Positions 1-32,097 of a DNA stretch of 64,000 nucleotides are shown here, piece by piece (position 1 is the stretch's first letter; every line of letters starts with the position of its first letter). A model generated the notes under the pieces. That model was not told the DNA's origin. It searched no databases and saw only the letters and a program-made list of their open reading frames with translations. The translations under genes were made by a program, and so were the position numbers. This stretch comes from Planctomycetota bacterium (GTDB taxonomy: Bacteria; Planctomycetota; PLA2; JAEUHO01). The stretch is from assembly GCA_050248855.1 (NCBI GenBank), contig JBFWRP010000001.1, forward strand, positions 59,134 to 123,133. The letters run 5' to 3'.

Positions 1-39
1 CGCTCGTCCGGCCCCGATGCATCCGGGCCGCCCGGCGGG

Positions 40-1650
40 TCACCGGGGCGTCGCGTCCCGCAGCGCCCGCCAGGCCCGCCCCATGAGGAGGCGGTAGGGG
101 CTGGTGCGCTCGCCCCTGGCACGCGCCGAGGCCAGGGCGGCCTCCAGATGGCCCAGGGCCTCCCGCGGCCGACCGGCCTCGAGGTGGCGCCGCGCGGCGT
201 TCTGGTGCGCGGAGAGGTGCCCGGCGTCCAGCTCCAGCGCCTCCTGGAAGGCCGCAAGCGCACCGACCTCGTCACCCGCGGCCGAGCGGGCCAGGCCGCG
301 GTCCGAGCGGATGTCCGGGTCGTAGGGGTCCAGCTCGACCGCCCGGTCGTAGGCCGCCACGGCCTCGCTGGCCTGGCCGCCGACCCGGAGCGTGTTGCCC
401 AGGTTGGCCCATGCCGTCGGGTCGTCCTCGCGCGCCGCGACGAGGGCCTCCTGGGCGCGCAGGCAGCGCGCGAGCAGGCGCCCGTCCGGGGCGTCCCGGT
501 GCAGGTTCTCGTAGTCGGCGCCGGCGATGGCCCAGAGCAGGTCGCCCGCTGCCGTGGACTCCGGATCGCGCCCGAGCTCGGCGACGGCCAGCTCGACGGC
601 TTCGTCGAGATCACCGGGCTTGCCCCGGGCCGCCAAGCGCGTGGCCAGCGCGGCGTCCGCACCTGCAACCTGGGCATCGCGCCTCTTGAGCGCCCGCCAG
701 GCCTCGATGGCCTCTTCGTTGCGCCCGGCCATCCCCAGCGCCTCGGCCCGGGTCGCTTCCAGGCTCGCCGGGGCGGTCCCCGCGTGCACCAGCGGCGCCA
801 GCGCATCGGCCAAGGGGGCAGCGGCCTCGGCAAAGCGTGCGGCGCGCAGCGCCTCGGCCTGCAGCGCCGCATCGTCCGGGGAGGCCGCCAACAGCTGTCC
901 GTACAGGCGCGCCGTCTGCATGGCATCGCGTGCCGCCGCGTACGAAGCCGCCGCCCCATGCACGTTGCCGGCCTCGAGGAACGCCTCGGCCGCGCCGCGG
1001 GCGTCCCCGGCCGCGTGCCGGGCGCGGGCCAAGGCGTCGGCAACCGGCTGGCGCCAACGCTCCGGCAGGCTGCCGCGATCCACGCGACCCAGTCGTTGCG
1101 CGGCGCCTTCGGCGTCGCCCCGCAAGGTCCGCGCCCAGCCCTCGGTGAAGAGGGCGCGCGCCCGCAGCTCGCCATCCAGGCCCTCTCCGTCCACGTGCTG
1201 CGCCCAGAGAGGTGCCAAGGCGTCGAGGGCGTCGGCCAGGAGCGTCGTCACGCCAAGGCCCCGCGTCACGCCCGCGCTGATGCGACGCTGCGCTTGGCGC
1301 AGCAGGTTCTCCGCCAGCGCGATGCGGTCCGCCGGGTCGCCACGCTCGCGGACGAGCCAGCCGCGCGCGTCCAGCGCGGCGGCGTCCTCGCCGCGCGCTT
1401 CGAGTCGAGCTGCCCAGGCCGCCTCGACACGTGCAGCGTCCTCGCCGCCGATCGCGCCGCTCGCCACCTCGTCGACGAGCGCGCGCAGCGGGGCATCCTC
1501 GTTCGCCGCGACGGCCGCGTCGAAGCGCGCCGGGAAGTCGGCCGCCTCCTCGCCGGCGTGGACACGAGCCGAGGCGTGGAGCATCGCACCCAAGGCCAGA
1601 GCGGCAGCCCACAGGGGGTGGCAGCGCATCAGCGGAGTCCTCCTACTCAC
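40..1650 (-). CDS. Secreted TPR-repeat protein
   Basis: N-terminal signal peptide (MRCHPLWAAALALGAMLHASA). C-terminal TPR-like repeats (AWANLGNTLRVGGQASEAVAAYDRAVELDPYDP...). Its 5' end overlaps the stop of the upstream cytochrome gene by 8 nt. An alternative start at the second Met is near 1629. Confidence 0.6.
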   Translation of the reverse strand: MSRRTPLMRCHPLWAAALALGAMLHASARVHAGEEAADFPARFDAAVAANEDAPLRALVDEVASGAIGGEDAARVEAAWAARLEARGEDAAALDARGWLVRERGDPADRIALAENLLRQAQRRISAGVTRGLGVTTLLADALDALAPLWAQHVDGEGLDGELRARALFTEGWARTLRGDAEGAAQRLGRVDRGSLPERWRQPVADALARARHAAGDARGAAEAFLEAGNVHGAAASYAAARDAMQTARLYGQLLAASPDDAALQAEALRAARFAEAAAPLADALAPLVHAGTAPASLEATRAEALGMAGRNEEAIEAWRALKRRDAQVAGADAALATRLAARGKPGDLDEAVELAVAELGRDPESTAAGDLLWAIAGADYENLHRDAPDGRLLARCLRAQEALVAAREDDPTAWANLGNTLRVGGQASEAVAAYDRAVELDPYDPDIRSDRGLARSAAGDEVGALAAFQEALELDAGHLSAHQNAARRHLEAGRPREALGHLEAALASARARGERTSPYRLLMGRAWRALRDATPR

Positions 1651-2821
1651 CGAACGTGAACGTCACGCGATGCACGACGCGGGCGACGGTCGTGTCCTCC
1701 ACGTCGTCGGGTCCTTCGCCAGCCTTCAGGCTGTCCTCGACGAGCGCGTCGCGCGGCGTGAGCCGGTACACGAGCCAGGCCTCGCCCCGTCCCTTCGGAA
1801 GGTCCGTCACGAAGCGCCCCGGGCCCTCGCCAAGCGTCGACACACGCGCCAACGGCGGGATCTGCGTGTCGTTCTTGCCCGAGCCCCGATAGAACTTGCG
1901 GAACTTGGCGAGGAACGACCGTTCCTGGTCGGCACGCTTGAGCGGGTCCAGCACGACGCGCCCGTCGGCGTCCCACAGCTTGATGTACGTGTCGAACGAG
2001 CGGTGGCGTGCATCGGTCGGGATGGCGTGCCCGGCCCCGCGGTTGGTGACGAAGACCTCGATCTCGAACCCCCCGCCGTCGGCAGGTCGGACGTCGACGT
2101 CCAGCGCCGAGGCGCGCTGCAGCATCGCGAAGCTGTGCCCGCCGCGCCACGTGTGGCTCCGCCCCTTGCGTACCACGCCACCGGGAACCAGCGGACGCTC
2201 GACCTCCGGCATGTGGCACGTGATGCAGGTCTCGGCGGGCCGCTGGCGTGGGAGGGGCGCCTCGGGGGCATAGGGTCCGGCCAGCCACTCGTTGCCCGTG
2301 TCGTGCTGGTTGTGGCACGGGAAGCAGATCTTCACGACGTCCCGCTGGCGCGGGTCGCCCACCGGACGACACGCCCCCTCGAGGCCGCCGAACGGGCCGG
2401 CTACGTTCGCACCATCCTGATGGCACGAGAGGCACGAGATGGCATCCTCGCGCCGCGACGCGCGAGCGACCGGGGTCTCGAACTGCGCTTCACGCAGCGA
2501 CACGGGCGCGTGGCAGCGGATGCACTCCTCCTTGTTGACGACGTCCTCGGAGAGCTCGAGGAAGAGCGGGTCGGACATGGCCTGGCCGTGGAAGGACTGC
2601 TTCCACTCCTCGTAGATCGCGCCGTGGCAACGACCGCAGGCCTCGGCCGAGAGGAACGCGGGCTCCGCGGGCGCGGGGAGTCCATCGACGGGGCCCGCCG
2701 ACGGGTCGGACGGTGCGCTCTCGGGGGGTGCCTTCGGCGTGGGCTCGCCGCACGCGATGGGCAACGCGGCGAGGAGGATCACCAACGGCAGCAGATGGCG
2801 CGCGGCCCGACGGGGGGTCAT
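1643..2821 (-). CDS. Pentaheme c-type cytochrome, probable lipoprotein
   Basis: Five CxxCH haem-binding motifs: CGRCH, CIRCH, CLSCH, CFPCH, CITCH. Internal Met start MTPRRAARHLLPLVILLAALPIAC gives a signal peptide with a lipobox-like Cys. The ATG overlaps the upstream ABC ATPase stop as ATGA. The 5' part of track ORF 1643..3115 beyond this Met is R/G-rich and non-coding in appearance. Confidence 0.8.
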   Translation of the reverse strand: MTPRRAARHLLPLVILLAALPIACGEPTPKAPPESAPSDPSAGPVDGLPAPAEPAFLSAEACGRCHGAIYEEWKQSFHGQAMSDPLFLELSEDVVNKEECIRCHAPVSLREAQFETPVARASRREDAISCLSCHQDGANVAGPFGGLEGACRPVGDPRQRDVVKICFPCHNQHDTGNEWLAGPYAPEAPLPRQRPAETCITCHMPEVERPLVPGGVVRKGRSHTWRGGHSFAMLQRASALDVDVRPADGGGFEIEVFVTNRGAGHAIPTDARHRSFDTYIKLWDADGRVVLDPLKRADQERSFLAKFRKFYRGSGKNDTQIPPLARVSTLGEGPGRFVTDLPKGRGEAWLVYRLTPRDALVEDSLKAGEGPDDVEDTTVARVVHRVTFTFGE

Positions 2822-3867
2822 GCAGCCTCCAAGGGGGTGACACGCGAAACGACGACGAGACCGACGGGCGCACCGGGCCGCGCGTCGACATCGGCCAGGG
2901 CCTCGACGCGCGTCCCGGCGACATCCGCGACGACGTGCGTGCCGTGGGCCGTCTCGAAGCGGTCGACCACGGTCGCCGCCACGCCCTCGTGCGGCGCGCG
3001 CGCCCGCACGTCCGCAGGGCGCAGCGCAAGCCTGACCGCGCGACCGTCCGTGGCGCCGGGACCGCCTGCCGGCTCCAAGGGGCCGAGCACGGTATCGAGC
3101 GCGGTCCCGCGCCACGTTGCCGGCAGCAGCGTGACGGCGCCAAAGGCGCGCGCGGCGGCCTCGGTGCGCGGGGCCCGAAGGACGTCGCGCGGGACGCCCG
3201 ACTCGGCCACACGGCCTGCCTCGAGGACGGCGACCTGGTCCGCGATCTCCAGGGCGTCATCGGGATCGTGCGTCACGAGGACGGCCGTGTGACGGCGCTC
3301 GCGGGCCAGCTCGCGCAACAAGGCACGCAGGGCTTGACGCCGCGTCGGGTCGACGTGGGCCAGGGGCTCGTCGTAGAGGACGAGCCCGGGCTCGGCGGCC
3401 AGCGTCCGGGCGATGGCGACGCGCTGCCGCTCGCCACCGGACAGCGCGCCCGGCCGGCGTCGTGCAAGCGCGGGCGGCAAGCCGACGCGATCGAACCACG
3501 CCGCGACCTCCGCACGACGACCGCGACCCGTCCCCGAGGCGCGCAGCGCAAACGCCACGTGATCGCCGGCCGTGAGGTGCGGCCAGAGCTCCAGGCCTTG
3601 GAACACGACGCCCACGCGACGCGCCTCCGGGGCCACGTGTACACCCTCGCCGTCCAGCAGGCGGTCGCCCAGACGCACGGTCCCGCTTCGCGGGCGCACG
3701 AGACCGGCCAACGCCCGCAGCAGCGTCGTCTTGCCGGCGCCACTCGTGCCGAGGAGCGCCAGCGTCGTCTCCGCCTCGTGGTCGAACGTGATGCCATGGA
3801 GCACGGCCGGCGCAGCGGCGTGGGGCGCCACGACGAGCTCGCGTACGGAGAGGGACTGGCCGTTCAT
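2818..3867 (-). CDS. ABC transporter ATP-binding protein with C-terminal TOBE-like domain (ModC/FbpC/PotA-like)
   Basis: Walker A GTSGAGKTT, ABC signature LSGGERQRVAIAR, Walker B LVLYDEPLAHVD, H-loop VTHD. A C-terminal transport-associated OB-like extension of about 110 aa. Start MNGQSL at 3867 overlaps the HEAT protein stop (ATGA). Confidence 0.85.
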   Translation of the reverse strand: MNGQSLSVRELVVAPHAAAPAVLHGITFDHEAETTLALLGTSGAGKTTLLRALAGLVRPRSGTVRLGDRLLDGEGVHVAPEARRVGVVFQGLELWPHLTAGDHVAFALRASGTGRGRRAEVAAWFDRVGLPPALARRRPGALSGGERQRVAIARTLAAEPGLVLYDEPLAHVDPTRRQALRALLRELARERRHTAVLVTHDPDDALEIADQVAVLEAGRVAESGVPRDVLRAPRTEAAARAFGAVTLLPATWRGTALDTVLGPLEPAGGPGATDGRAVRLALRPADVRARAPHEGVAATVVDRFETAHGTHVVADVAGTRVEALADVDARPGAPVGLVVVSRVTPLEAA

Positions 3868-5840
3868 CGGGAACCTCGCTCGGCCAGCGCGTTCCACGCG
3901 GCGTCGACCTGCGCTCGCGTGACGTGGCGGGCCGTCTCGTCCCCCGGCTCCGACTGCGCGTCGTGGACGTGGGCCGGGAGGTCGAGGGCGCGCCGCAGCA
4001 GATCCCACCACGCGTGGCGCTGCTCGCGCGTCGGGGCCGCGAGGCCGGCCGCGACAACGCCCCACACCGCCTGCGGGCCCTCCTGCACCAGGCGCCCCAC
4101 GGTCCAGGCCCGCTGGGCGTCGCGTCCGTCCGGTGCAAGGTCCGCCAGGGCCTTCGCCACGCGCGCATCGCGCGGCGCGCCCACGAGACCGCCGAGCGCC
4201 GCGACGCGCACCTCCTCCAGGGGATCCTGCAGCAAGCGCAGCAACACCTCGAGGGCCGCGGGTACGGTGCGCGCGTAGGCCCCCAGGGCGACCGCCGCGC
4301 GCGCGCGGACCATCGGCCGTGCGTCCGTGGCCAGGTCGTCGAGCGCGGGCACGGCGCGCGGATCGCGGACGAGACCCAGCGCGAGGGCGATCTCGCTGCG
4401 GGCCACGGGGCGGACGGCCGTGGCGGCGGCCTCGACGAGTGCCGGCGTCATCGGCGGACCGATCAGCTCGATGGCGGCCTTCGAGATGATGAAGCGGCGC
4501 GCGTCGTTCTCGCGCAGGTTGTGGACGAGCTGGCGCGAAGCGGCCTGGAACGAGGGCGCCGTCTCGTCGAACGCCGTGCGCAGGAGGTCGCCCTGGTCCC
4601 GGCGCTCGTGCCACCAAGCGGCCAAGGCCTCGAACGCCGCCTGACGCTGCGGGATGCCCGCATCGGGCGTGAAGCCGTGGGCGGGAGCGCCCGGCAGATG
4701 CCGCTCGAGCGCATCCGTCGCCTCCTGCAGGACGCGGATGCGGAAACGCGCGCGACGTGGATCCAGCTGGCGCTCGATCAAGTAGCCCGCCGCACGCGGT
4801 ACGCCAAGGCGCAGCAAGGCTTCGCACGCCGCCGCATCGACGGCGAAGTAGTCGATGTTGGGCCACTCGCTCGCGGGGATGGGCGTGTCCGAGCTGCCGG
4901 GGTACTCCCAGCGATCGCGCGCGCGGATGCCGTCGCTCAGCACGCACAGGTGCCAGGCGAGGGCGGGTGCCGCCCCGGGGTCGCCGAGGTCGCCGAGCGC
5001 CGAAGCGGCCACCGTGCGCAGCCAGCCGTCGTCGGCGGCCAGCGCGCGCTCGAGATCCTCGCGCACGCGCGTGTCGCCCAGTCGACCCAGGGCCAGCGCC
5101 GCGCGGGCAGCGCGTGGCGTCCGACCGTCGGCGCCGGGGAGGTGGTTCGCCCTGCGCAGCGCGGCGAGGAGCACGTTGGCGGCGCGGCCCCGCAGCTCGT
5201 CGACGAGCCGATCGAGGCCGCGCGTCATGCGCTCGGCGTCGTCGGCCGACGCGTCGTCCAGCGCGGCGAGCGCCGGCGCCTCGCGCCGCAGGAGGTCGGT
5301 CACCGCCCCCACCGGCGAGGCGATCCCCTCCGCGAGGTCGGGGTGGAACGCCAAGTCCAGCATCAAGGCCTCCGCCACGGACGGCGAGGGGGGCCAGCGC
5401 CCCGTGATCCACGCGGGGTCGGTGTCGCGTGCGCCCAGCATCCACGCGGCGGTGGCGCGTGCGGCGCGTCGATCGGGGGCATCGACCTCGTCGGCGCGGG
5501 GCCAGGCGTCGCGGGCCGCGGCCGTCGCGAGCGATCCCACGTCCGCTTCGGTCAAGGCGCGGACCGCGAGGCCGAGCCCCACGTCGTCGTCAAACGCCGC
5601 CATGCGGGGCGCGACCTCCAGCGTGGCGACGGGGTCGGCAAGGCGCGGCTGCTCCAGGACGAGGGCCGCGGCTGCCAACCGCTCGGCGCGGCTTGCCGAC
5701 TCCCGTAGGAGGCGGTCGAGCGCGACGCGGGCCTGGGAGGCCGGAGCCTCGCCGGCCCACGCGGGAGCACGTGGTCCGCCCGCCACGGCGCATGTCACCG
5801 CCAGCAGGCCTGCTGTCACCCAAGCGCGACGGTCATGCAT
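3864..5840 (-). CDS. Secreted HEAT/PBS-lyase-repeat protein
   Basis: Internal Met MHDRRAWVTAGLLAVTCAVAGG looks like a signal peptide. Repeated ALG.LGD...A...L motifs typical of HEAT/PBS-lyase repeats. Start at 5840 overlaps the cca stop by 8 nt. Confidence 0.65.
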   Translation of the reverse strand: MHDRRAWVTAGLLAVTCAVAGGPRAPAWAGEAPASQARVALDRLLRESASRAERLAAAALVLEQPRLADPVATLEVAPRMAAFDDDVGLGLAVRALTEADVGSLATAAARDAWPRADEVDAPDRRAARATAAWMLGARDTDPAWITGRWPPSPSVAEALMLDLAFHPDLAEGIASPVGAVTDLLRREAPALAALDDASADDAERMTRGLDRLVDELRGRAANVLLAALRRANHLPGADGRTPRAARAALALGRLGDTRVREDLERALAADDGWLRTVAASALGDLGDPGAAPALAWHLCVLSDGIRARDRWEYPGSSDTPIPASEWPNIDYFAVDAAACEALLRLGVPRAAGYLIERQLDPRRARFRIRVLQEATDALERHLPGAPAHGFTPDAGIPQRQAAFEALAAWWHERRDQGDLLRTAFDETAPSFQAASRQLVHNLRENDARRFIISKAAIELIGPPMTPALVEAAATAVRPVARSEIALALGLVRDPRAVPALDDLATDARPMVRARAAVALGAYARTVPAALEVLLRLLQDPLEEVRVAALGGLVGAPRDARVAKALADLAPDGRDAQRAWTVGRLVQEGPQAVWGVVAAGLAAPTREQRHAWWDLLRRALDLPAHVHDAQSEPGDETARHVTRAQVDAAWNALAERGSR

Positions 5841-7245
5841 CGGTCGGCGGCTCCTGGTCAGGCACGGGGTACCGGTCCCGCACGGCGCGTACCGCGGCGT
5901 CGCGATCCACGAGGCGGCCCTCCAGCTGCTCGTCCTGGACCCAGGCGAGGATGCGTCCCATGTCGGGTCCCGGACGGTGGCCGAGCGCGAGCAGGTCCTT
6001 GCCCGTGAGCAGCGGCTCGGGGACGGCCGGCTCCGCGGCAAGCTCCGCGCGGGCGGCTTGCAGGAAGTCGAGCACGTCACGGGCTCCGTGCGAAGCGCCG
6101 CAGTCGGCGGCGTGGAGCCTGAGGTGCAGGTCGAAGTCCGGCTCGGCCAGGAAGCGACGCAGCGTGGCCCGGCGCATGTGCGGCGTGGCCGCAATGCGCA
6201 TGTGCTGTCCGATCAGCGCCGCCACGCGTTCGCGTGTGCGCCGGGGGAGGCGCAGTCGCTCGAGCAGCTGCTCGGCCGCGTCCACGCCCTGCGCATCGTG
6301 GCCGTGGAACACGATGCGCCCGTCGGGTTCGCGCCGGAACGTGGTGGGCTTGGCGACGTCGTGCAAGAGCGCGGCCCAGAGCAGGACCTCCTCGGCGCGA
6401 CGCGCCTCGGCCTCGGCCTCCACGTCGTCCTCGGCGGCGGCGGGTCGGGGCGGGAATCGCGTGCCGTCCAGCACCAAGGCGGTGTGCACGAACACGTCCC
6501 CCTCGGGATGCCAGCGCGGTGGCTGGGGCACGCCGCGCATGGCCTCGATCTCGGGCAGCACGACGGGCAGGAGGCGCAGGTCGCGAAGGAGCCGCAGCGC
6601 GCGGCCGCGACCGTGGCGCAGGATCTTCCCCAGCTCGTCGCGCACGCGCTCGGCCGACACCTCGGCGACACGCGGCGCCATGTCGCGCACCGCGGCTTGC
6701 GTACCGGGCTCCAGCGCGAACCCCAGCTGCAGGGCGAACCGCGCGGCGCGCAGGATCCGCAGGTGGTCCTCCTCGAAGCGATCGTGCGCGTCGCCGATGG
6801 CGCGCAGCAAGCGGGCTGCGAGGTCCGCGCGACCGCCGACGTGGTCGTGGATCGCGCCGGTCTCCGGGTCTTCGAACAACCCGTTGACCGTGAAGTCGCG
6901 GCGCGTGGCGTCCGTGGGCGCGTCGCTGAACGTGACGTCGTCCGGCCGGCGCCCGTCCACGTAGCAGCCGTCCGCGCGGAACGTCGCCACCTCGACGGGG
7001 CCGGCGGGCCGCGGGATCACGAGGACGCCGAACTTCGCGCCCACGGTCACCGCTTCGGGGAAGAGCGCCTCCCCCACCTCGGGGCGCGCACTGGTGGCGA
7101 TGTCCACGTCCAGCGGCGCTCGCCCGAGCAAGCGGTCGCGGACGGCGCCGCCGCAGAGGAGGGCCTCGTGCCCCGCGTCCCGCAGGCGACGGGCAACGCC
7201 CCGGGCTTCCTCCATGCGGCGATGGGCCAGCGGCTCGTGGCTCAT
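5833..7245 (-). CDS. cca: CCA-adding tRNA nucleotidyltransferase (class II, HD domain)
   Basis: Pol-beta nucleotidyltransferase head (LCGGAVRDRLLG, RRDFTVNGL) followed by HD-domain motifs (HDVAKP, HGHD). Confidence 0.8.
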   Translation of the reverse strand: MSHEPLAHRRMEEARGVARRLRDAGHEALLCGGAVRDRLLGRAPLDVDIATSARPEVGEALFPEAVTVGAKFGVLVIPRPAGPVEVATFRADGCYVDGRRPDDVTFSDAPTDATRRDFTVNGLFEDPETGAIHDHVGGRADLAARLLRAIGDAHDRFEEDHLRILRAARFALQLGFALEPGTQAAVRDMAPRVAEVSAERVRDELGKILRHGRGRALRLLRDLRLLPVVLPEIEAMRGVPQPPRWHPEGDVFVHTALVLDGTRFPPRPAAAEDDVEAEAEARRAEEVLLWAALLHDVAKPTTFRREPDGRIVFHGHDAQGVDAAEQLLERLRLPRRTRERVAALIGQHMRIAATPHMRRATLRRFLAEPDFDLHLRLHAADCGASHGARDVLDFLQAARAELAAEPAVPEPLLTGKDLLALGHRPGPDMGRILAWVQDEQLEGRLVDRDAAVRAVRDRYPVPDQEPPTDA

Positions 7246-7321
7246 GCCGCCTTCCGGCGGTCGATCGGTGGGAGGGTGGGCGCTCGCACGGGCCGATTGA
7301 ACCCCGCCGACGAGCCCGATC

Positions 7322-9574
7322 CTACGAGCCGGCCTGCTCCGGTGCGGTCGGCGTCAGGGCGTCCGCGAGCGCCTGGAGCTCGCTGCGCACCTCCGCGGGC
7401 CAGTGGCCGCCGCCGTAGCGGACGTGTTCCTCCCAGGCCGTCAGGCGACGCAGGGAGCGGGCAGCGCGCGGGTGGCGCGTTGCCGCCTGCGTCTCGAGCT
7501 CGCGCGGCGTGGCCGACGGGGCCCGGCGGACGCCACGAGCCCGCAGCAGGGCCAGCATCTCCGCGTACGGGCCCGTCGGGCCGGCGGCCTTCGTCGCGGG
7601 CGCACGCCGACCCGAACGCCGCCGGGCGAGGCGCAGCGCGACGAGGGCGAGGAGCACGACCAGGGGGACGCCGGCCCACGCGCTCTGCGGACCGAAGAGG
7701 AGGGCCAGCAGGCGCTCGCCGCGCTTGGCGACGCTCGTCCAGAGCCCTGTCCAGCCCTCGCGGTCCAAGTCGAACCAAGGGGCCTCGCCTCGTCCACCCT
7801 GGACTTCCACGGTGTGCGTCTGGGCGTCGACCGCGCGACGATCCGGAGGCGTGGGGTTGAGGGGAACCCAGCCGGCTCCATCGAGGTAGATCTCGGCCCA
7901 GGCGTGATAGTGCGTGCCGCGCATGACGAGGCTGCGCCGCTCGTCGCTGGTGGCGTCGCCGCCCCAGAACCCGCGCACGTAACGAGCGGGATGCCCCAGG
8001 CTGCGGAGCAGCACCACGAGGGACGTGGCGTAGCACTCGCAGTGCCCCTGCCGCACGCGGAACAGGAAGTCCGCCACGCGACGGCTGGGGTCGAGCGGCG
8101 GCTGCGCGAGGCTGTACACGAACTCGGGTCCGCGCAGCCACGCCTCCAGGCGCTGCGCCCGCAGCCACGGGTCCATCTCGCTCCCGACGACCTCGCGGGC
8201 CAACGGCAGTACCTCGGCCCGGAGGTCGTCGGGGAGCTGCAGCCACGCGCGCAACGGGCTGACCGCCGCGTCGCTCCTGCGTCCGCCAAGCCACGGCGTG
8301 TCTCGCGGCAGCGGTCGCGAGGTCTGGCGGATCTCGTCGCCTGCCTCGACGCGACGTGCAGCCGTCCACGTACCGTCGTCACGGCGGCGGACCCCTTCGC
8401 GCGTGATCGTGCGTCCGGCGCGATGGATCGAGACGTCCAGCACCTGCTCCTCGAGGAACAGGCGGCGGTGCCCGCCTTGCAGGACCTCGATCGAGAGCCG
8501 TCGGGGCGTACCGGGGCCCGGCCGCTCGTCCACCACGACCTCGCCCGCGGCGTTCGCGCGGTAGAGCAGCGGATCGCGCACGAGCGCTTCGGGTGCTCGC
8601 CAGCTGCCGTCGCTGGCCACCTGCGAGAGTGCGTTCTCGCGCAGCACGACGTCGCGCGGCGCGCCGATCTCGTCGAGGAGCCGGACTTCGAAGAACGGCC
8701 GCGCCGAGGCCTGGATCCGCGCAACGCCCCCGAACGGCACGACGGCCGCGTCGGCGTTGTCCCGTAGATCGGGACCCGTGACGCCCGTGCGCCCGCCCTC
8801 GCGCGAGCCGACGCGGGCATCTTCCTCCGCGAAGGGCGAGGGGCCCGTCTCGGCCGTGGCCACCTCGCGCACCCAGGTGGCGAGGCCGCGCGGTGCGAGC
8901 GCGTAGAGCAACAGCGTCAGGGGCAGCGCCACGACGAGGAAGCGGAGCGCGAACCCCGCGAGGGGACGGAGCCCCGGCGCCGCGCCCTCGGCGACGAGCC
9001 TGCGCACGCCCGGCACCTCGCGTCCGCGCACGGTGGCCGGGTCGCGTTCCAACAGCAGGACCGTCCAGCCGAGCGCACTTGCGAAGGCCAGCACGACGAG
9101 CAGGCCGAGGGCGCCCGGCCATGCGGCCACCGAGGCGACGACCTGCACGGCAGCAAGGAACAGGACGAGGTACGCCGCCGTCGGCCGCGGTGTACGCACG
9201 AGCAGGCCGATCTGCGCGACGCCGAGCAGCACCAGGAGCGTGGCGTAGGCGCGCTCGGGGACGTCGCGAAGCACGTGCAGCGCACCGAGCACGAGGACGG
9301 GCGCCAGCGCTGCGGCCAGGCGCGGCCCCCAGCGCCCGGCCAACAACGGCCCGTCGGCGCCCCTCCGTCGCAGCGCCCGGACCAGCACGGGCAGCGCGAC
9401 GAGCGCCGGGAGGGCCCGCGGCACGCCGGGCACGACCAGCCCGAGCGCCGTCGCCGCGACGGCCACGAGGTGCGCGCTGGTCCGTGCCGGTCCGGACAGG
9501 ACTCCGCGTACGAGGCGCGTCGCGCCGCGTTCCGCGTGTGCGGCGTGCGGGTGGGCCGGCGCGGAGACGCTCAC
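7322..9574 (-). CDS. Transglutaminase-like membrane protein (TgpA-like; DUF3488 / transglutaminase core / DUF4129 architecture)
   Basis: Several N-terminal TM helices, transglutaminase core (GHCECYATSLVVLLRSLGHPARYVRGF), and a C-terminal TM. Proposed GTG start at 9574 overlaps the DUF58 stop (GTGA). The N-terminal about 140 codons of track ORF 7322..10000 look non-coding. Confidence 0.75.
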   Translation of the reverse strand: MSVSAPAHPHAAHAERGATRLVRGVLSGPARTSAHLVAVAATALGLVVPGVPRALPALVALPVLVRALRRRGADGPLLAGRWGPRLAAALAPVLVLGALHVLRDVPERAYATLLVLLGVAQIGLLVRTPRPTAAYLVLFLAAVQVVASVAAWPGALGLLVVLAFASALGWTVLLLERDPATVRGREVPGVRRLVAEGAAPGLRPLAGFALRFLVVALPLTLLLYALAPRGLATWVREVATAETGPSPFAEEDARVGSREGGRTGVTGPDLRDNADAAVVPFGGVARIQASARPFFEVRLLDEIGAPRDVVLRENALSQVASDGSWRAPEALVRDPLLYRANAAGEVVVDERPGPGTPRRLSIEVLQGGHRRLFLEEQVLDVSIHRAGRTITREGVRRRDDGTWTAARRVEAGDEIRQTSRPLPRDTPWLGGRRSDAAVSPLRAWLQLPDDLRAEVLPLAREVVGSEMDPWLRAQRLEAWLRGPEFVYSLAQPPLDPSRRVADFLFRVRQGHCECYATSLVVLLRSLGHPARYVRGFWGGDATSDERRSLVMRGTHYHAWAEIYLDGAGWVPLNPTPPDRRAVDAQTHTVEVQGGRGEAPWFDLDREGWTGLWTSVAKRGERLLALLFGPQSAWAGVPLVVLLALVALRLARRRSGRRAPATKAAGPTGPYAEMLALLRARGVRRAPSATPRELETQAATRHPRAARSLRRLTAWEEHVRYGGGHWPAEVRSELQALADALTPTAPEQAGS

Positions 9575-10680
9575 GCGAGCCCCTCCACCCACGGCGCAAG
9601 GAGGGCAGCGTCCTCGCCCGGAACGACCAGCGAGCGGCCGTGCCGGCCCACCAGGCGCCTCAGCCCGTCTGCGAGACCCGGCTCCGGGCGGGAGGTGACG
9701 TAGACCACCGCGGTGCCCGGTCGCGGCGGCTGCGCCTTGAGGGCGCCGCGGGGGCGCCTTCCACCACGGGCCACGACGGCGAGCGCGTCCAGGCCCTGGG
9801 CGAGCGGGCGGGCCAGGGCTCCGTCCCGACGCCGTGTCACGCCGCTGCGGCCCCGGTCGAGGACGAGACGTGCAGGGCGACCGCTGGACAGCAACGCGCG
9901 CCACAACGTGGCGGTGGCGCGCACGGCGCGTTCGAAGTCCGAGCTGGTGCCTCCGGCGCCGAGCACGAGCGTGACCTCCTGGCCCTGGGCGCCGCGCCAC
10001 TCCGTGACGATGGGCTCGCCTCGACGCGCCGACGTGCGTGCGTGGACGCGACGAAGGTCATCGCCCTCGCGCCACGCCCGGACGCCGTGGAGCTCTTCCT
10101 CGGTGCGGGCACGCGCATCGAGAGCGAGCGGGTCCTGGGGGCCGCTGGCCAGCCACGCACGAAACCGCGGACCGGGACGTCCTTCGCTCGGTCGCACCAC
10201 GAGGCGATCCACGAGAGGCAGCGTCACGTTGCATCGGACCAAGCCCAACGGGAAGCGACTCGTGACGCGGGGGCCGCGCAAGGTGACGTGCCCGCGCTGG
10301 CGCCACGTCACGTTGGTCGTGATCGTCGTCGAGGCGCCGCCCGGGAGGTGCGGCACGTCGACCTCGATCGCGCGCGGCATCGAACCGCCGCCGGGGCGGT
10401 CCACCACCTTGAGGCCCAGCGCGCCGCGCCGGGCCTCGCGCTTCACCGTCCAGGCCAACGTCGCGGGTCGCCCCACCGTGGCGCGGGACGGCACGCTGCG
10501 GCGCACGCTGATGCCCTCGACGTTGGTACGTGCCAGCCGACGCGCCCACCAGGTCGCGGCCAGGATCGCGCAGGCCAGCAGCAGGAGCGGATTGCGCCCC
10601 AGCACCAGGGCCATCACCGCGAAGCCGAAGCCGCCCCACAGGTAGACCGCCCCCTCCTTCGTGAAGCGGCGCTCGAACAC
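9571..10680 (-). CDS. DUF58 family protein (vWA-like, usual MoxR/TgpA partner)
   Basis: It is the C-terminal 369 codons of the 1421-aa track ORF. N-terminal TM hairpin (LWGGFGFAVMALVLG...AILAATWWARRLA) then a DUF58-like body. GTG start at 10680 is inferred. Everything upstream in that ORF is S/R/P/A-rich shadow. Confidence 0.6.
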   Translation of the reverse strand: MFERRFTKEGAVYLWGGFGFAVMALVLGRNPLLLLACAILAATWWARRLARTNVEGISVRRSVPSRATVGRPATLAWTVKREARRGALGLKVVDRPGGGSMPRAIEVDVPHLPGGASTTITTNVTWRQRGHVTLRGPRVTSRFPLGLVRCNVTLPLVDRLVVRPSEGRPGPRFRAWLASGPQDPLALDARARTEEELHGVRAWREGDDLRRVHARTSARRGEPIVTEWRGAQGQEVTLVLGAGGTSSDFERAVRATATLWRALLSSGRPARLVLDRGRSGVTRRRDGALARPLAQGLDALAVVARGGRRPRGALKAQPPRPGTAVVYVTSRPEPGLADGLRRLVGRHGRSLVVPGEDAALLAPWVEGLA

Positions 10681-10792
10681 GGGCTCGAGGGGTCCGCTGG
10701 AGCGAGGTGCGCGCGACGACGCCGTCCCCCGGAGGGCGTCCGCGACCCGCCCGCGCCGGGCGCCCCTGCTGCGAGGCTCATCGCCTCCCGAG

Positions 10793-10837
10793 CCAGTGCC
10801 TCCGGGGCCAGTGCCTCCGGGGCCAGTGCCTCCCCGG
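10793..10837. repeat. 15-bp x3 perfect/near-perfect tandem repeat (CCAGTGCCTCCGGGG)
   Basis: Direct reading gives three head-to-tail copies, the third with one mismatch. It lies in the divergent region between the DUF58 start and the 11042 gene. Confidence 0.8.
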
Positions 10838-11041
10838 CTCGTGCGCGCCAGCCGCGGGCCGCGCAGGGGCAGCGCGTCGTGGCCGGGCGCTCGGTCGAGG
10901 GCGAGGGCGCACACGCGGATCGGTGCTCCACGGCCCGGTCCCGGGCCCGCCGGAGTATACGTCTCGACCAGCGCCGGGTTCGCCCGGCGGCCACATGCCC
11001 ACGTCGCGCCTGGCGGGCGTGCAGGGCGCGGGAGAGCACGG

Positions 11042-22434: not shown

Positions 22435-23130
22435 GTGAGCCCGACCCCGCCTGCGCTCCACGTTCGCGACCTGCGCCATGCCTTCCGCTCGCCGGAGGGG
22501 GGCGCACTGCCCGTGCTCGAGCTGCCCGAGCTCGACGTCCAAGCGGGCGAGCGCCTCGTCGTGCAGGGGGCCAGCGGCGGCGGCAAGACGACACTGCTGC
22601 ATCTGGTCGCGGGCATCTTGCCCGTCCAACACGGCACGCTGGAGGTCGCCGGCATCTCGCTGAAGGGCATGAGCGAGGCCGCGCGGGATCGCTTCCGCGC
22701 CCGACACGTCGGCTACCTCTTCCAGGCCTTCCACCTGCTGCCGCAGCTGACGGCGTTGGAGAACGTGGCCGTCGCGCTCACGTTCCAGGGCATCCGCCCG
22801 GCGGCCGCGCGCCAAGCGGCCGCCGCCTCGCTGCAGCGCGTGGGCCTGGCCGACCGTCGGGGGCACCGCCCCCACCAGCTCTCCGTCGGCCAGCAGCAGC
22901 GTGTCGCGATCGCGCGCGCGCTCGTGGGCCATCCGTCCATCGTGCTGGCCGACGAGCCGACGAGCAGCCTCGACCCACAGCGCGCCGAGGAGGCCCTTGC
23001 GCTGCTGGAGGCCTTCGCCGAGGAGCGCGGAGCGGCCCTCTTGATCGTCACCCACGACCCCGCGGTCGTGGCCCGGGCCTCGCGGGTGGTCAGGCTGGAA
23101 GCGCCGCGCCCGGCGGAGGCCGCACGATGA
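22435..23130 (+). CDS. ABC transporter ATP-binding protein (LolD/MacB-type)
   Basis: Walker A GASGGGKTT, signature LSVGQQQRVAIARAL, Walker B IVLADEPTSSLD. GTG start at 22435. Confidence 0.85.
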   Translation: MSPTPPALHVRDLRHAFRSPEGGALPVLELPELDVQAGERLVVQGASGGGKTTLLHLVAGILPVQHGTLEVAGISLKGMSEAARDRFRARHVGYLFQAFHLLPQLTALENVAVALTFQGIRPAAARQAAAASLQRVGLADRRGHRPHQLSVGQQQRVAIARALVGHPSIVLADEPTSSLDPQRAEEALALLEAFAEERGAALLIVTHDPAVVARASRVVRLEAPRPAEAAR

Positions 23131-24458
23131 GCCTGCTGGCCCTGGCGTGGCGCAGTGTGCGCGGTCGGCCCTTGGCCAGCACGCTTACGGTCGTTGCCGT
23201 GGCGCTGGGCGCGGCGCTCGTCATCGCCCTGCTCTCGCTTCGCGCTTCGACGCGCCGCTCGTTCCTGGAAGCTGCGCGCGGCTACGACGCGATCCTCGGC
23301 CCCACCGAGGGCTCGCCCCTGGACACGGTGCTCTCGACCCTCTTCCACGTCGGCGAGTCCAAGGGCACGATCCCGTGGGCGGCGTGGGATGCCGTGCAGA
23401 AGGACCCCCGCGTTGCCCTGGCCGTGCCGTATGCGCTGGGGGACAGCTTCCGCGGGCGCCACATCGTGGGTACCAGCAACGACCTCTTCCGTGCCCTGCA
23501 CGGGGCGGACGGCAAGCCCCTCGGCGAGGGCGTCGTCGGAGCCCTCTTCGAAGACGGGTCCTTCGAGGCCGTCGTCGGCAGCGCCGCAGCCGCTTCCACG
23601 GGGCTCCGCCGCGGCTCGCAGTTCCGTGCGGCGCATGGCGTCGAGGTGGTGACGCACGAGCACGAGGAGCTCTGGACGGTCGTCGGCATCCTGCGGCCCA
23701 CGGGCACCCCGGCCGACCGCGCCATCTTCATTCCCTGGAAGACGTTCTACGCCATCGGCGGGCACGAGGAAGGTGCCGAAGCCTTGCGCGCGCGCCGCGC
23801 CGCCCAAGCGGAGGCGGGCGGTGAGCCGCCCCCTGGCGCGGGCGCCCACGACGAGGACCCGGACGGTGGTCACGACCACGAGGCGGACGCTCCCACGGCC
23901 GAGGAAACGCTGGGGCTCTCGGCGATCGGCATCCGCCTCGTGAGCCCGGGTCTGCGCATCGCCTACTTGGCGGAGCTGCGCCAAGACCGCGACGACCTCG
24001 ACCCCGTGCAGCCGCTCGAGGTCATCCACGACCTGTTGCAGATCGTAGGCTCCGTCGACCAGGTGTTCGAGCTGCTCGCCTGGGCGGTCGTCGTCGTGTC
24101 GTCGCTCGGCATCCTCGTGGGCCTCTACAACACGATCCACGGGCGGCGCCGCGAGATCGCGATCCTGCGTGCCCTGGGGGCGCGCGCACGTCACGTGTTC
24201 GTCGTCATCGTGCTGGAGGCCGTGTTGCTCGTGCTGGCGGGAGGCGTCCTGGGTCTCTTGCTAGGCCACTTCGCGTTGGCGGCCGCCGCGCCCGAGCTGC
24301 TCCGTGAGTATGCGATCCGCGCCGACGTGGCACCGGGCATGCGCGACCTCGCGGTGCTCGGGGCGTTGCTCGGGCTCGGGCTGCTGGCCGGGTTGCTGCC
24401 GGCCCTCCGGGGTCTGCAGACCCCGGTGGCACGCAACCTGCAGCCGCAGGATGCGTGA
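23127..24458 (+). CDS. ABC transporter permease, FtsX/MacB-like
   Basis: N-terminal TM, a large periplasmic domain, and a C-terminal FtsX-type 3-TM bundle. Overlaps the ATPase stop by 4 nt. Confidence 0.8.
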   Translation: MSLLALAWRSVRGRPLASTLTVVAVALGAALVIALLSLRASTRRSFLEAARGYDAILGPTEGSPLDTVLSTLFHVGESKGTIPWAAWDAVQKDPRVALAVPYALGDSFRGRHIVGTSNDLFRALHGADGKPLGEGVVGALFEDGSFEAVVGSAAAASTGLRRGSQFRAAHGVEVVTHEHEELWTVVGILRPTGTPADRAIFIPWKTFYAIGGHEEGAEALRARRAAQAEAGGEPPPGAGAHDEDPDGGHDHEADAPTAEETLGLSAIGIRLVSPGLRIAYLAELRQDRDDLDPVQPLEVIHDLLQIVGSVDQVFELLAWAVVVVSSLGILVGLYNTIHGRRREIAILRALGARARHVFVVIVLEAVLLVLAGGVLGLLLGHFALAAAAPELLREYAIRADVAPGMRDLAVLGALLGLGLLAGLLPALRGLQTPVARNLQPQDA

Positions 24459-24467
24459 GCCCGGCCG

Positions 24468-25112
24468 ATGGGGCGCCTCGACAGCCTGCTGCTGGTGACG
24501 GCACTCCTCGTGGCGCTGGGCGCCGTCGGCTACGGCGTCATGGAGGCCGCGCGGCCCGCCGGCGAGGCGGGGTCGACGACCCTGCTCGGCGGCGTGCTGG
24601 GCGGGCAGCTGCACGCGGGCGTGGACCCCCTGCGGCCGCCTGGCCTGCCCGAGGGGGCCCGGATCGACCCGGCGACGGGCCGCTTGGTGGGCGTCCGGGC
24701 GGCTGACGGCGACGGCGCCCGGGGACTCGCGTGGGAGGACCTCGCGCTGCCAGACGGCCTCGTGGACATGGCCGAGATGCCGGCCGCCGTCCGGGCGCTC
24801 GAGGGTCAGCGCATCGCGCTGATCGGGTTCGTGTCGCCGGCGTTCGATCCCGTCGCGTTCCGCCATTTCTTCCTGGTGGCGTCCACCTTCGCCTGCTGCT
24901 TCGGTCAGCCACCGGGGCTCGACGGCCTGCTCGAGGTGCGCCTCGCGGAGTCGGCAAGCCCGCTCGACATGGACCCACGGCCCCACGTCGTCAGCGGCAT
25001 CCTGCGCATCGAGCCGCTGCGCCTGCGCGAGTCCCCCGACGCGCCGATCGTCCTGCTCTTCCATCTGGACGAGGCCCGGGCGTGGGCGCTCGGCGGTGAC
25101 TCCGGCGGGTAG
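24468..25112 (+). CDS. DUF3299 family protein (paralog 1)
   Basis: N-terminal TM anchor and a conserved CC motif (FACCFGQPPG). This family is typically encoded next to FtsX/MacB-like ABC systems. Confidence 0.7.
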   Translation: MGRLDSLLLVTALLVALGAVGYGVMEAARPAGEAGSTTLLGGVLGGQLHAGVDPLRPPGLPEGARIDPATGRLVGVRAADGDGARGLAWEDLALPDGLVDMAEMPAAVRALEGQRIALIGFVSPAFDPVAFRHFFLVASTFACCFGQPPGLDGLLEVRLAESASPLDMDPRPHVVSGILRIEPLRLRESPDAPIVLLFHLDEARAWALGGDSGG

Positions 25113-25978: not shown

Positions 25979-26332
25979 GGGGGCGAACGGATTCGACCGG
26001 AAGCCGGTCGGTTCGGGTGGCGCGCCGGGGGGCCGGACGAACCCCGTCAACAAGCGCCCGGAAACCACAGTTGCCAACAGCAACTACGCTCTCGCCGCCT
26101 AGTCGCGGCGCGGCCCCTCCTCTCTGCCCACCAGGGGAGTCGGGCCGCCATACGGTGGGCTGGTCGAGGTGTCGCCGCGGGTCGGCAGCTTGACGAGACT
26201 CTACCCGCTGGCCTTCGGCGAAGCCTGTCCCGGGCGTTTCCGCGGGTGAGACCTGAAGTACACGGACTACGCGCGTAGAGGCTCGGCTCGGCCCTTCTCG
26301 GGACGGGGGTTCGATTCCCCCCGCCTCCACCA
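25979..26332 (+). ncRNA. ssrA: tmRNA (transfer-messenger RNA)
   Basis: 5' GGGGGCGAACGGATTCGAC. Tag reading frame GCCAACAGCAACTACGCTCTCGCCGCCTAG (ANSNYALAA-stop) at about 26073..26102. 3' tRNA-like T-arm and acceptor GGGGGTTCGATTCCCCCCGCCTCCACCA. Confidence 0.9.
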
Positions 26333-30588: not shown

Positions 30589-32097
30589 ATGCGCCGAAAG
30601 GTGTACGAGCGTCCCCGTCCCGCCATGACCCTGACACCGCGCTATCGCCTGGGCCTCGCCCTGCTCGCCGCCCTCGCGGTGACGGACCTCTTCGTGTGGC
30701 TGTTCGTGCTGCCGGCCCGCCGCGGAAGCGCGGTGGCCGCGTCCGACACGCGCTTTGCCGCTTGGGAGCCCGAGGCGCCCCCCGACGAGCCCCTACCGGG
30801 GGCCGCGACCGCCGCCGGCTCGGGCCTGCGCGGCAGCGGGGACGGTCGCCCGGCCTCCTCGCGTCCCGCCGACCGGGACGGCGGCCCGGCGCCGCGCATG
30901 GAGCTGGTCGGCGCGCGCGTGGAGCTTCGTGCTGCGCTGGGTCGCCAGCCGACGGACTGGAACCGGATCCGCGAGGTGCTCGCGGCTCGCCCCGACGCGC
31001 TCGACGACGAGCTCGTGGAGACGCTGCTCGAGCGCTTCGAGGAGGCACCGCTGGGGCGCGGACTGGTCGAAGCCTTCGCCGAGGCGCGCCATCCGAAGCT
31101 GTTCGACGAGCTGCTGGCGATCGCCGAGGAGCAGCTCGGCCGCGGCACGCTCGGCCAGATGGCCCTCGAGGCCCTCGGGGCCCTTCCCGACGTCGATCCT
31201 TCGCGCGCCGTCGATGCGATCGCGCCCCACTTGGGGGATGACCCCCGCGAGGACGCCCCCTGGCTGACCGCGCTCGCGCGCCTGGGCGGAGAGCCGGGGC
31301 TCGCCACGCTCGTGCAGTACCTGGCCCGTAGCGACCATCCGGAGCGCATTCCCCAGAGCGCGGTGCAGGGGCTTCGCGTCGCGGACCGCGCGGCGGCCGG
31401 GCGCGTGTTGGCGGAGGCGTTCGAAGCCGCGCGCTCGGACGACGAGCGCGCCGTGCTTGCTCTCGTGGCCGGTGCCGTGAAGGCCGAAGGGCTCGAGCCC
31501 CGCCTGGTGGAGCTGCTGACCTCGACGGAGCAGGCCCACGTCGCAACGAACAGCGCACGCGCCCTGGCCGAGCAGCGGACCGCATCTGCCGTGGACGCCC
31601 TGGTCCGCGTGGGGCGATCCGACGGACCTGGCGCGCCGCAAGCGCGCTCCGCCCTGAACCAGATGCGCGGTGGCGAGATCGAACCCGATGCGCTGGATCG
31701 CCTGCGCGATCTGCTGCGCGAGGATGCGCCGTCGGCCACCACGATCATGGTCCAAGGCATCGCCATGGGGGTCCTCGGTGCGCAAGGCGACCTCTCGTCC
31801 CTGCCCCTCGTGGGCGAGCGCGTGGCCGCCGACGACGAAGCCGTGGCCGCTCCGGCCATCACGGCACTCGGGGCCTATGGGGCGCACGCGCGCGGCGAGG
31901 TCGGCCGCCTCGTGGCGCGCTTCGATCGCTCGTCCGCGCCGGTGCAGGCCTCGATCGTGCAGGCCCTCGGGCGGATCGGAGGCGGAGACGCCGTCGAGGC
32001 GCTGCGCGGCTGGAGCGAGTCCAGCTCCACCCCTGCAACCCTGCGCAACCACATCCTGCATGCCTTGCGCGGAGCGCGTACGGTCGGCGGGCCGTAG
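30589..32097 (+). CDS. Membrane-anchored HEAT-repeat protein
   Basis: N-terminal TM helix (LGLALLAALAVTDLFVWLFVL), then repeated HEAT-like helical units. Alternative start near 30625. Confidence 0.55.
   Translation: MRRKVYERPRPAMTLTPRYRLGLALLAALAVTDLFVWLFVLPARRGSAVAASDTRFAAWEPEAPPDEPLPGAATAAGSGLRGSGDGRPASSRPADRDGGPAPRMELVGARVELRAALGRQPTDWNRIREVLAARPDALDDELVETLLERFEEAPLGRGLVEAFAEARHPKLFDELLAIAEEQLGRGTLGQMALEALGALPDVDPSRAVDAIAPHLGDDPREDAPWLTALARLGGEPGLATLVQYLARSDHPERIPQSAVQGLRVADRAAAGRVLAEAFEAARSDDERAVLALVAGAVKAEGLEPRLVELLTSTEQAHVATNSARALAEQRTASAVDALVRVGRSDGPGAPQARSALNQMRGGEIEPDALDRLRDLLREDAPSATTIMVQGIAMGVLGAQGDLSSLPLVGERVAADDEAVAAPAITALGAYGAHARGEVGRLVARFDRSSAPVQASIVQALGRIGGGDAVEALRGWSESSSTPATLRNHILHALRGARTVGGP

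Follow-up and report, generated by a model that had tools for sequence, protein, structure and literature searches.

Multihaem cytochromes are commonly regarded as components of respiration or of extracellular electron transfer, and importers of the ATP-binding cassette (ABC) type as redox-blind. The two are encoded side by side in the five-gene operon described here, which lies in a 64,000-nucleotide stretch of DNA from a Planctomycetota bacterium (GenBank assembly GCA_050248855.1, contig JBFWRP010000001.1, positions 59,134 to 123,133 of the forward strand; the whole stretch is called the window below). Its ABC ATPase has the same fold as the ATPases of FbpABC/PhnS2T2U2-type importers over the full length, including the regulatory beta domain. 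The top Foldseek match is FbpC of Thermus thermophilus in the FbpBC ferric importer (PDB 9J4R, 9j4r_B; TM-score 0.87, 37% identity). These importers differ from the window operon, which is without a substrate-binding protein (SBP) or a permease and carries a pentahaem cytochrome together with HEAT and TPR proteins. The orphan “multitask” type-I ATPases MsmX, MsmK and MsiK are encoded apart from their permeases (PMC7658222). They resemble the window protein as type-I importer ATPases with a C-terminal regulatory domain and no permease alongside, but they are stand-alone genes that serve sugar importers of Firmicutes and Actinobacteria, whereas the window ATPase gene lies between two genes for secreted proteins, translationally coupled to both, and is always paired with a cytochrome gene. 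For the cytochrome, the reference is the low-potential pentahaem c552 of Thermochromatium tepidum (PDB 5ZE8), which forms one pentahaem cytochrome family with Geobacter ExtKL and Gsu2801 and whose role is unassigned (PMC11976967). Later work on ExtKL, under the name MccSep, identified it as a polysulfide reductase in which one haem has His/Cys ligation and the immunoglobulin-like (Ig-like) domain contributes a selenocysteine (bioRxiv 10.1101/2025.11.18.688581). The window protein differs from c552 in being a lipoprotein encoded after an ABC ATPase, and in the absence (an alignment gap) of an insertion of about 80 residues found in c552. All five open reading frames (ORFs) of the operon were found where the preliminary description of this DNA had placed them and read as follows, from head to tail:

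5833-7245, minus strand: cca, 470 residues, heading the tightly packed unit
3864-5840, minus strand: secreted HEAT protein, 658 residues, its start overlapping the cca stop by 8 nt
2818-3867, minus strand: ABC ATPase of the type-I importer class, 349 residues, with 4-nt overlaps at both ends
1643-2821, minus strand: pentahaem c-type cytochrome lipoprotein, 392 residues
40-1629, minus strand: secreted TPR protein, 529 residues from the ATG at 1629 (536 residues from an alternative GTG at 1650)

The window operon is a permease-less form of an importer family with an integral pentahaem cytochrome, whose constant core is an ATPase gene followed by a cytochrome gene. A cytochrome profile search of 1.84 billion representative proteins returned 1246 representatives at E-values up to 1e-10. 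Eighty metagenome loci were fetched by cytochrome-only patterns and all their ORFs were scored with hidden Markov models (HMMs) built from the window cluster; since fetching relied on the cytochrome only, the pair counts carry no bias towards ABC genes. A pair was scored when an ABC ATPase gene was located on the same strand, at most 400 nt upstream of the cytochrome gene. This was observed in 25 of 25 genome loci and 57 of 61 metagenome loci, counting those with enough upstream sequence. When counted by cytochrome cluster, the pair was found in 31 of 33 clusters at 70% identity and in all nine at 50%. In a distant member found on a short contig (L040), a TOBE-like C-terminal fragment overlaps the cytochrome start by 4 nt. 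Periplasmic proteins with HEAT repeats, and in most cases also TPR proteins, are encoded with the pair. The gene-cluster family was met almost only in Planctomycetota, as indicated by named metagenome-assembled genomes and by DUF1559-type neighbours.

Three architectures were defined by the genes found upstream of the ATPase. In type A (21 loci) an SBP gene is followed by a fused permease gene, the ATPase and the cytochrome, often with a HEAT protein next. The SBP is a signal-peptide protein with SBP_bac_6/8/11/1 domains, and the permease, 508-630 residues long with 12-15 transmembrane helices, carries two BPD_transp_1 domains; the permease/ATPase and ATPase/cytochrome overlaps are 4 nt each. 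Both proteins match the SBP and the fused two-domain permease of the FbpABC/PhnS2T2U2-type importers, and their nearest NCBIfam models are PhnS, PhnU2, ThiP, ModB and sfuA, all scoring far under cut-off. Type B is the window arrangement, in which a secreted HEAT protein is found where type A has the SBP and the permease. Type C is ordered ruvA, HEAT protein (about 450-490 residues), ATPase (244 residues, without a TOBE domain), cytochrome, HEAT lipoprotein (about 540 residues) and TPR protein; it has no SBP or permease, and a secreted HEAT protein occupies that position. In a neighbour-joining tree of the cytochromes each architecture forms a clade of its own. The term permease-less, used in the preliminary description, is therefore correct for the clade of the window but not for the system as a whole, as type A relatives have the full importer. 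Because this sister clade has an SBP and a fused permease before the same ATPase-cytochrome pair, the gene-cluster family is built on an importer, not on an exporter. The earlier suggestion of an export or assembly module is not supported, in view of the complete importer operon of the sister clade and of the class of the ATPase itself. No description of the pairing was found in the literature searched, of incomplete coverage (multihaem cytochromes in combination with Planctomycetota, HEAT repeats, ABC transporters, iron uptake and ferric reductase), in agreement with the initial remark that the arrangement is not a recognised one.

By class, the ATPase is a motor of type-I importers (FbpC/PhnT2/CysA/MalK class) and not of exporters. 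It matches Pfam ABC_tran (E 1.5e-29); among NCBIfam models PhnT2 scores best and GlcV, PotA and CysA come next, none of them reaching its cut-off. Further structural matches are AlgS, GlcV, PotA, MalK, CysA and MsmX (6yir). The identity with the type A ATPase of locus L068 is 45% (178 bits), to be compared with 92 bits for the unrelated MacB-type ATPase of the window. The Walker A, Walker B, Q-loop, LSGG signature, D-loop and H-loop motifs are invariant in 34 orthologues (G40, S42, G43, G45, K46, T48, Q90, L142-S143-G144-G145, D166-E167-P168, D173 and H200), and Walker B has its catalytic Glu. The TOBE-like C-terminal domain noted initially is confirmed as real by the AlphaFold2 model (predicted local distance difference test (pLDDT) score of 92.5), which is all-beta from residue 246 and superposes on FbpC over the whole chain. 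Pfam is blind to the domain in the window copy, as neither TOBE nor TOBE_2 matched the whole protein or residues 230-349 alone at E-values up to 1; some orthologues carry PF08402.

Five CXXCH motifs (C62, C100, C130, C166, C199) are invariant in 29 close and 36 distant cytochrome sequences, and the lipobox Cys is near-invariant. The helical five-haem domain is followed by a C-terminal Ig-like beta-sandwich, which is the fold of T. tepidum c552 (PHC family, PMC11976967). A near-invariant extra Cys151 (G-A-C-R-P) is located outside the haem motifs, between motifs 3 and 4, while the Ig-like domain features the invariant sequence N-x-G-A-G-H-x-x-P-T-D-A-R-H-R (N260-R274), which includes the invariant H265. 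The cytochrome is membrane-tethered throughout the family, as a lipoprotein in type B and by an N-terminal anchor in types A and C. MccSep/ExtKL of Geobacter (PDB 9WT8) has the same overall layout, with a pentahaem cap and an Ig-like stem. The near-invariant extra Cys and the invariant Ig-like loop of the window family are reminiscent of the His/Cys haem and the Sec loop of MccSep, although the loop has His in place of Sec. However, the MccSep gene sits with an outer-membrane conduit whereas the window cytochrome gene sits with an ABC ATPase. No porin-like gene of an Ext-like conduit was recognised in the cluster listings, where no formal search was made. Sequence similarity to MccSep is marginal (E 0.036), covers the haem 1 region only, and no alignment reaches MccSep C239. 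Membership of MccSep was ruled out: there is no in-frame TGA, no Cys in residues 230-392, and the loop reads G-A-G-H265 versus D-G-U-P. The distant cytochrome homologues P0114, P0115, P0116 and P0266 are found in unrelated contexts without ABC genes and mark the outer limit of the ATPase-cytochrome association. P0116 (31% identity) heads a Rieske - cytochrome b - multihaem cytochrome operon (L006/L007 10001-13618, 2289-7885), which is adjoined by a type II CRISPR-Cas system with a 1145-residue HNH/RRXRR Cas9-like protein, Cas1, Cas2 and Cas4.

A BPD_transp_1 permease or SBP close to the pair was searched for gene by gene and none was found in the 64-kb window or in the 8.4 kb beyond the window start, which agrees with the remark of the preliminary description that none is encoded nearby. 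A permease gene just outside the window, named in that description as an observation that would refute its proposal, is thus absent from these 8.4 kb. Permease and SBP HMMs matched nothing in the window, nor did they match anything at the other type B loci. Three more genes are found beyond the window start, coding for a secreted protein of 541 residues (sec541), an MFS/SpdSyn fusion, and a 232-residue protein that has a signal peptide and is anchored at its C-terminus. The fold of sec541 was not recognised apart from a C-terminal TPR-like pair, and its candidacy as a hidden SBP received no Pfam, NCBIfam or PDB support. The MFS/SpdSyn protein (751 residues; L001 14744-16999, downstream of the TPR gene) has about 13 transmembrane segments and a spermidine-synthase-like domain, and matches NF037959 with 172.7 bits. 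As a constant component of type B clusters that is missing from type A and type C loci, and as a member of NF037959, not of BPD_transp_1, it was rejected as the missing permease. Besides the operon ATPase, the window encodes only one ABC system, a MacB/FtsX pair complete in itself (22435-24458), within a plus-strand segment (22435-25112) that codes a 231-residue ATPase, a 433-residue permease with MacB_PCD, and then a DUF3299 protein. In the distant type B loci L043 (8009-8518) and L049 (7919-8491) a protein of 169-190 residues, with a CxxC...CxxC zinc-ribbon-like N-terminus and 2-3 transmembrane segments, is encoded right after the cytochrome and is possibly a small membrane component.

It is conceivable, if doubtful, that the ATPase is a relic or a shared motor, that is an orphan multitask ATPase which serves SBP-permease sets encoded elsewhere and stays in the operon for historical or co-expression reasons, while the HEAT protein, the cytochrome and the TPR protein carry out unrelated periplasmic electron transfer. 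This would agree with the pure electron-transfer context of P0116, with the lack of a membrane partner common to types B and C (MFS/SpdSyn is present in type B only), and with the established existence of orphan type-I ATPases such as MsmX, MsmK and MsiK (PMC7658222). However, the adjacency of the ATPase and cytochrome genes persists across the three architectures and in nine of nine clusters at 50% identity, most often with the stop codon of one gene overlapping the start codon of the next, and this persistence is difficult to account for unless the two are functionally linked. To our knowledge, the known multitask ATPases are moreover not embedded between secreted proteins, which also counts against a shared motor. 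A different and unlikely explanation is that the importer ATPase of types B and C drives a non-canonical membrane partner (the 13-transmembrane MFS/SpdSyn protein, TgpA or small transmembrane proteins) without any EAA-loop permease, and constitutes with the HEAT, TPR and cytochrome proteins a new ATP-driven periplasmic assembly or redox device. Two independent clades do keep an intact ATPase with invariant motifs and no BPD_transp_1 permease within 7-10 kb, the HEAT protein occupies the position of SBP and permease, type B clusters always have the MFS/SpdSyn membrane protein, and L043 and L049 have the small protein with 2-3 transmembrane segments right after the cytochrome. The absence of MFS/SpdSyn from type C leaves no shared partner candidate, though, and the argument rests on absence in short flanks. 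We know of no precedent for a MalK/FbpC-class ATPase without an EAA-loop permease, which counts against such a device.

The five genes constitute one translationally coupled operon. The cca/HEAT junction (ATGCATGA) is an 8-nt overlap (5833-5840), and the HEAT/ABC and ABC/cytochrome junctions are both ATGA, with 4-nt overlaps at 3864-3867 and 2818-2821. These three overlaps were correctly identified in the preliminary description, while the fourth one it proposed, at 1643/1650, depends on the start of the TPR gene: GTG at 1650 creates an 8-nt overlap and ATG at 1629 a 13-nt gap. The gap is probably the true arrangement because an AGGAGG sequence lies 9 nt before the ATG and because the public gene call starts the TPR gene at this codon (529 residues). 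An exact match to the cytochrome identified the window on the reverse strand of contig JBFXDE010000011.1 in the Planctomycetota metagenome-assembled genome GCA_050181445.1, from which this gene call comes. Other 4-nt overlaps are present in the window (16212/16215, 21657/21660), whose G+C content is about 75%. Such overlaps are ordinary in this window and are therefore evidence for operon membership and nothing more unusual. Features next to the five genes are the following:

1639-1644, minus strand: AGGAGG, a Shine-Dalgarno-like sequence read from the sequence, overlapping the cytochrome stop codon
7322-9574, minus strand: TgpA-like membrane transglutaminase, separated from cca by 76 nt, outside the five-gene unit and its usual upstream neighbour
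9571-10680, minus strand: DUF58-family protein, overlapping the TgpA start by 4 nt and completing the usual upstream pair DUF58-TgpA

The TgpA-like protein matches Pfam Transglut_core and DUF4129 and has 8 predicted transmembrane segments; the Pfam DUF58 match of its partner is weak. Scans for sigma-70 promoters and intrinsic terminators in window positions 1-11000 and in locus L001 gave no signal above shuffled background, so the operon limits rest solely on gene spacing. The tRNA scan of the window, made to see if tRNA genes encode CCA, found zero tRNA genes, and the only Rfam match in the whole window is a tmRNA gene far from the locus (25979-26332, plus strand; RF00023, 136.8 bits), with the tag peptide ANSNYALAA.

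Conservation of the gene order was investigated in the close clade and in distant type B lineages. Of the 116 cytochrome homologues in the set of 5.8 billion proteins, nearly all are 55-90% identical and carry a Planctomycetota label. When one genome was scanned for each species, 27 species were found, all of them uncultured Planctomycetota, and the order (DUF58-TgpA)-cca-HEAT-ABC-cytochrome-(X)-TPR-sec541-MFS/SpdSyn-anchored protein is found on one strand in 27 of 27, as far as contigs reach. The junctions likewise overlap or abut in the called genes of four independent assemblies. Gene X codes a HEAT-like (alphaRep-like) lipoprotein of about 240 residues and is found between cytochrome and TPR genes in most relatives (L002 11365-12330, L003 11242-11994, L004 11215-11928 and 20 other loci), but it is lacking in the window and in L009, L010 and L011, the three relatives closest to it. 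At least five rearrangements occurred in the flanks and none inside the block: DUF58-TgpA is absent in L002/L012 and L024, with cca still heading the block, and downstream genes differ in L004 and L009. The more distant locus L041 keeps HEAT-ABC-cytochrome-...-TPR-sec541 at identities to the window of 41% (ABC), 38% (cytochrome), 28% (HEAT) and 25% (sec541). The type B lineages L043 and L049 keep TgpA-cca-HEAT-ABC-cytochrome-...-TPR, with identities of 48-49% for cca and 32% for HEAT, and of 39% for ABC and 40% for the cytochrome in L049; L043 continues with sec541 and MFS/SpdSyn, while the L049 locus ends in sec541. The cca/HEAT overlap persists in both (4 nt and 31 nt, respectively).

These data bear directly on the very unlikely case that phylogenetic inertia accounts for the locus, its genes being unrelated and chance neighbours in one narrow lineage. 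Housekeeping genes do head the clusters (cca in type B, ruvA in type C), and a neighbourhood of about 20 kb, from purM to DHH, is broadly syntenic in the close clade, so that part of the conservation is inertia and synteny within the close clade alone is no proof of coupling. However, the order is kept at 25-49% protein identity, the flanks rearrange while the block does not, and the ATPase-cytochrome pair occurs in 57 of 61 independently sampled metagenome loci. Inertia is thus largely refuted for the core HEAT-ABC-cytochrome-TPR, and conservation of the core HEAT-ATPase-cytochrome-(HEAT)-TPR extends far beyond it. The synteny check proposed in the preliminary description therefore gave a positive outcome in the 27 species and in the more divergent loci, and its notion of a single tightly coupled unit is sustained by the tight junctions and by a gene order kept across these species and deeper lineages.

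Pfam and NCBIfam matches agree with the domain calls made initially for the five proteins (cca, HEAT, ABC, five-haem lipoprotein, TPR). The cca product has the Pfam domains PolyA_pol, PolyA_pol_RNAbd, HD and tRNA_NucTran2_2, and its translation displays GGAVRD, DVD, RRDFTVN and EDHLR, which correspond to the GGxVRD, DxD, RRD and EDxxR motifs of class II enzymes. Its best NCBIfam models are CCA tRNA nucleotidyltransferases, all under their equivalog cut-offs (TIGR02692 is first, with 227.5 bits for a cut-off of 438.8), and PcnB models score too. Judged by these motifs and domains, it is a class II tRNA nucleotidyltransferase with an HD domain and probably a CCA-adding enzyme. In all relatives with a contig long enough, L043 and L049 included, the HEAT gene is immediately preceded by cca, whose position at the head of type B operons is thus an old one. 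Since type C loci have ruvA at the cluster head instead, cca is most likely a housekeeping passenger that has long shared the promoter, and a role as functional partner fits less well.

The HEAT and TPR proteins both have Sec-type N-terminal signal peptides, as read from their sequences. HEAT_2 is matched in four stretches of the HEAT protein (Pfam, E 3.6e-23). A search with the 658-residue family among 5.8 billion proteins, aimed at other phyla, gave 19 matches, all from the same clade; L041, L043, L049 and the type C loci have diverged HEAT proteins at the corresponding place, with 28-32% identity in the first three. Two further HEAT_2 proteins with N-terminal hydrophobic or signal sequences are encoded on the plus strand of the window, at 30589-32097 and 49193-50887. 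The TPR protein has TPR_1, TPR_2, TPR_16 and related Pfam matches close to its C-terminus (residues about 390-500), and its gene is found downstream of the cytochrome gene in all relatives with a contig long enough. A role of these proteins in cytochrome c maturation or haem handling, with a CcmA-like ATPase, a CcmH/CycH-like TPR factor and a PBS-lyase-like HEAT protein attaching or delivering haem, appears highly improbable. It would draw on a weak TPR_CcmH_CycH match (26 bits for a cut-off of 42) and on weak HEAT_PBS, CpcE and NblB matches, but these are under cut-off and typical of generic repeats. The ATPase belongs to the importer class and has a TOBE-like domain, unlike the short CcmA type, no CcmB or CcmC is encoded in the cluster, and type A relatives have an SBP and a BPD_transp_1 permease. 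An identity as a Ccm system or haem lyase was rejected on the defining features (CcmB/CcmC, ATPase class and the sub-cut-off TPR match).

The interpretation that we favour, with evenly balanced confidence, is that the operon belongs to an importer-type cluster family whose cytochrome carries out a redox step in the periplasm. Anchored on the periplasmic side of the inner membrane, the cytochrome would alter the redox state of the transported solute, or of the carrier of that solute, ahead of uptake by the ABC system; candidate solutes are iron, or a sulfur or other oxyanion species. The HEAT and TPR solenoids may act as periplasmic scaffolds or adaptors. In the lineage of the window the ATPase, whose catalytic motifs are intact, would most likely energise a permease encoded elsewhere in the genome, by analogy with MsmX, MsmK and MsiK. 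In EfeUOB-type iron uptake, Fe(II) is oxidised by a haem protein of the periplasm and then imported. The likeness is one of concept only, in that a haem protein in the periplasm sets the redox state of a solute that a dedicated importer takes up: the EfeUOB families (DyP peroxidase, cupredoxin, OFeT permease) are unrelated to a pentahaem cytochrome and an ABC system, and nothing here shows an iron substrate. A sulfur or oxyanion substrate seems as plausible as iron because of the near-invariant extra Cys and of the MccSep sulfur chemistry in the wider pentahaem family, and the data do not discriminate between them.

Several observations weigh against this interpretation. The SBP, permease and ATPase matches all score far under the equivalog cut-offs of NCBIfam and are divided among families for iron, phosphonate, thiamine, polyamine and oxyanions, so that they single out no substrate. 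The permease partner of the window ATPase was not found in the window or the 8.4 kb beyond its start. The AlphaFold2 model of the cytochrome is haem-free and of moderate confidence (pLDDT 75.8), haem ligation is not readable from it, and the cytochrome may be a catalyst or just an electron carrier. The midpoint-rooted cytochrome tree fits two permease losses or one gain about equally. HEAT_2 proteins are common in this genome, with two more in the window, which makes the HEAT component a weak functional clue. The broad synteny of the surroundings in the close clade, mentioned above, also belongs to these points.

Elsewhere in the window, a giant secreted protein of 2935 residues is encoded at 38968-47775 on the plus strand, with N-terminal VIT and VWA domains and about 2300 residues without a Pfam match. 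A 1228-residue protein with five CarboxypepD_reg-like repeats and SdrD_B/SpaA-like domains is encoded at 59823-63509 on the minus strand.

The association of ATPase and cytochrome is robust and unexpected, and all organisms that carry it are uncultured. It is a persistent genetic pairing of a multihaem cytochrome with an ABC importer ATPase in an under-studied phylum, found at more than 80 loci and in three architectures, and it suggests that solute uptake is linked to a redox step in the periplasm. A genomic context is also now available for cytochromes of the T. tepidum c552 type, to whose founding member no function has yet been assigned. The gain would be modest, a better annotation of several “hypothetical” Planctomycetota families, should the core be nothing more than a transporter plus an accessory electron carrier. 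If the new-machine explanation, taken broadly, is true, periplasmic electron transfer would be obligatorily coupled to ABC import. Occurrence of the same core with and without a permease provides a natural experiment, which could reveal what role an importer ATPase takes in the absence of its permease gene.

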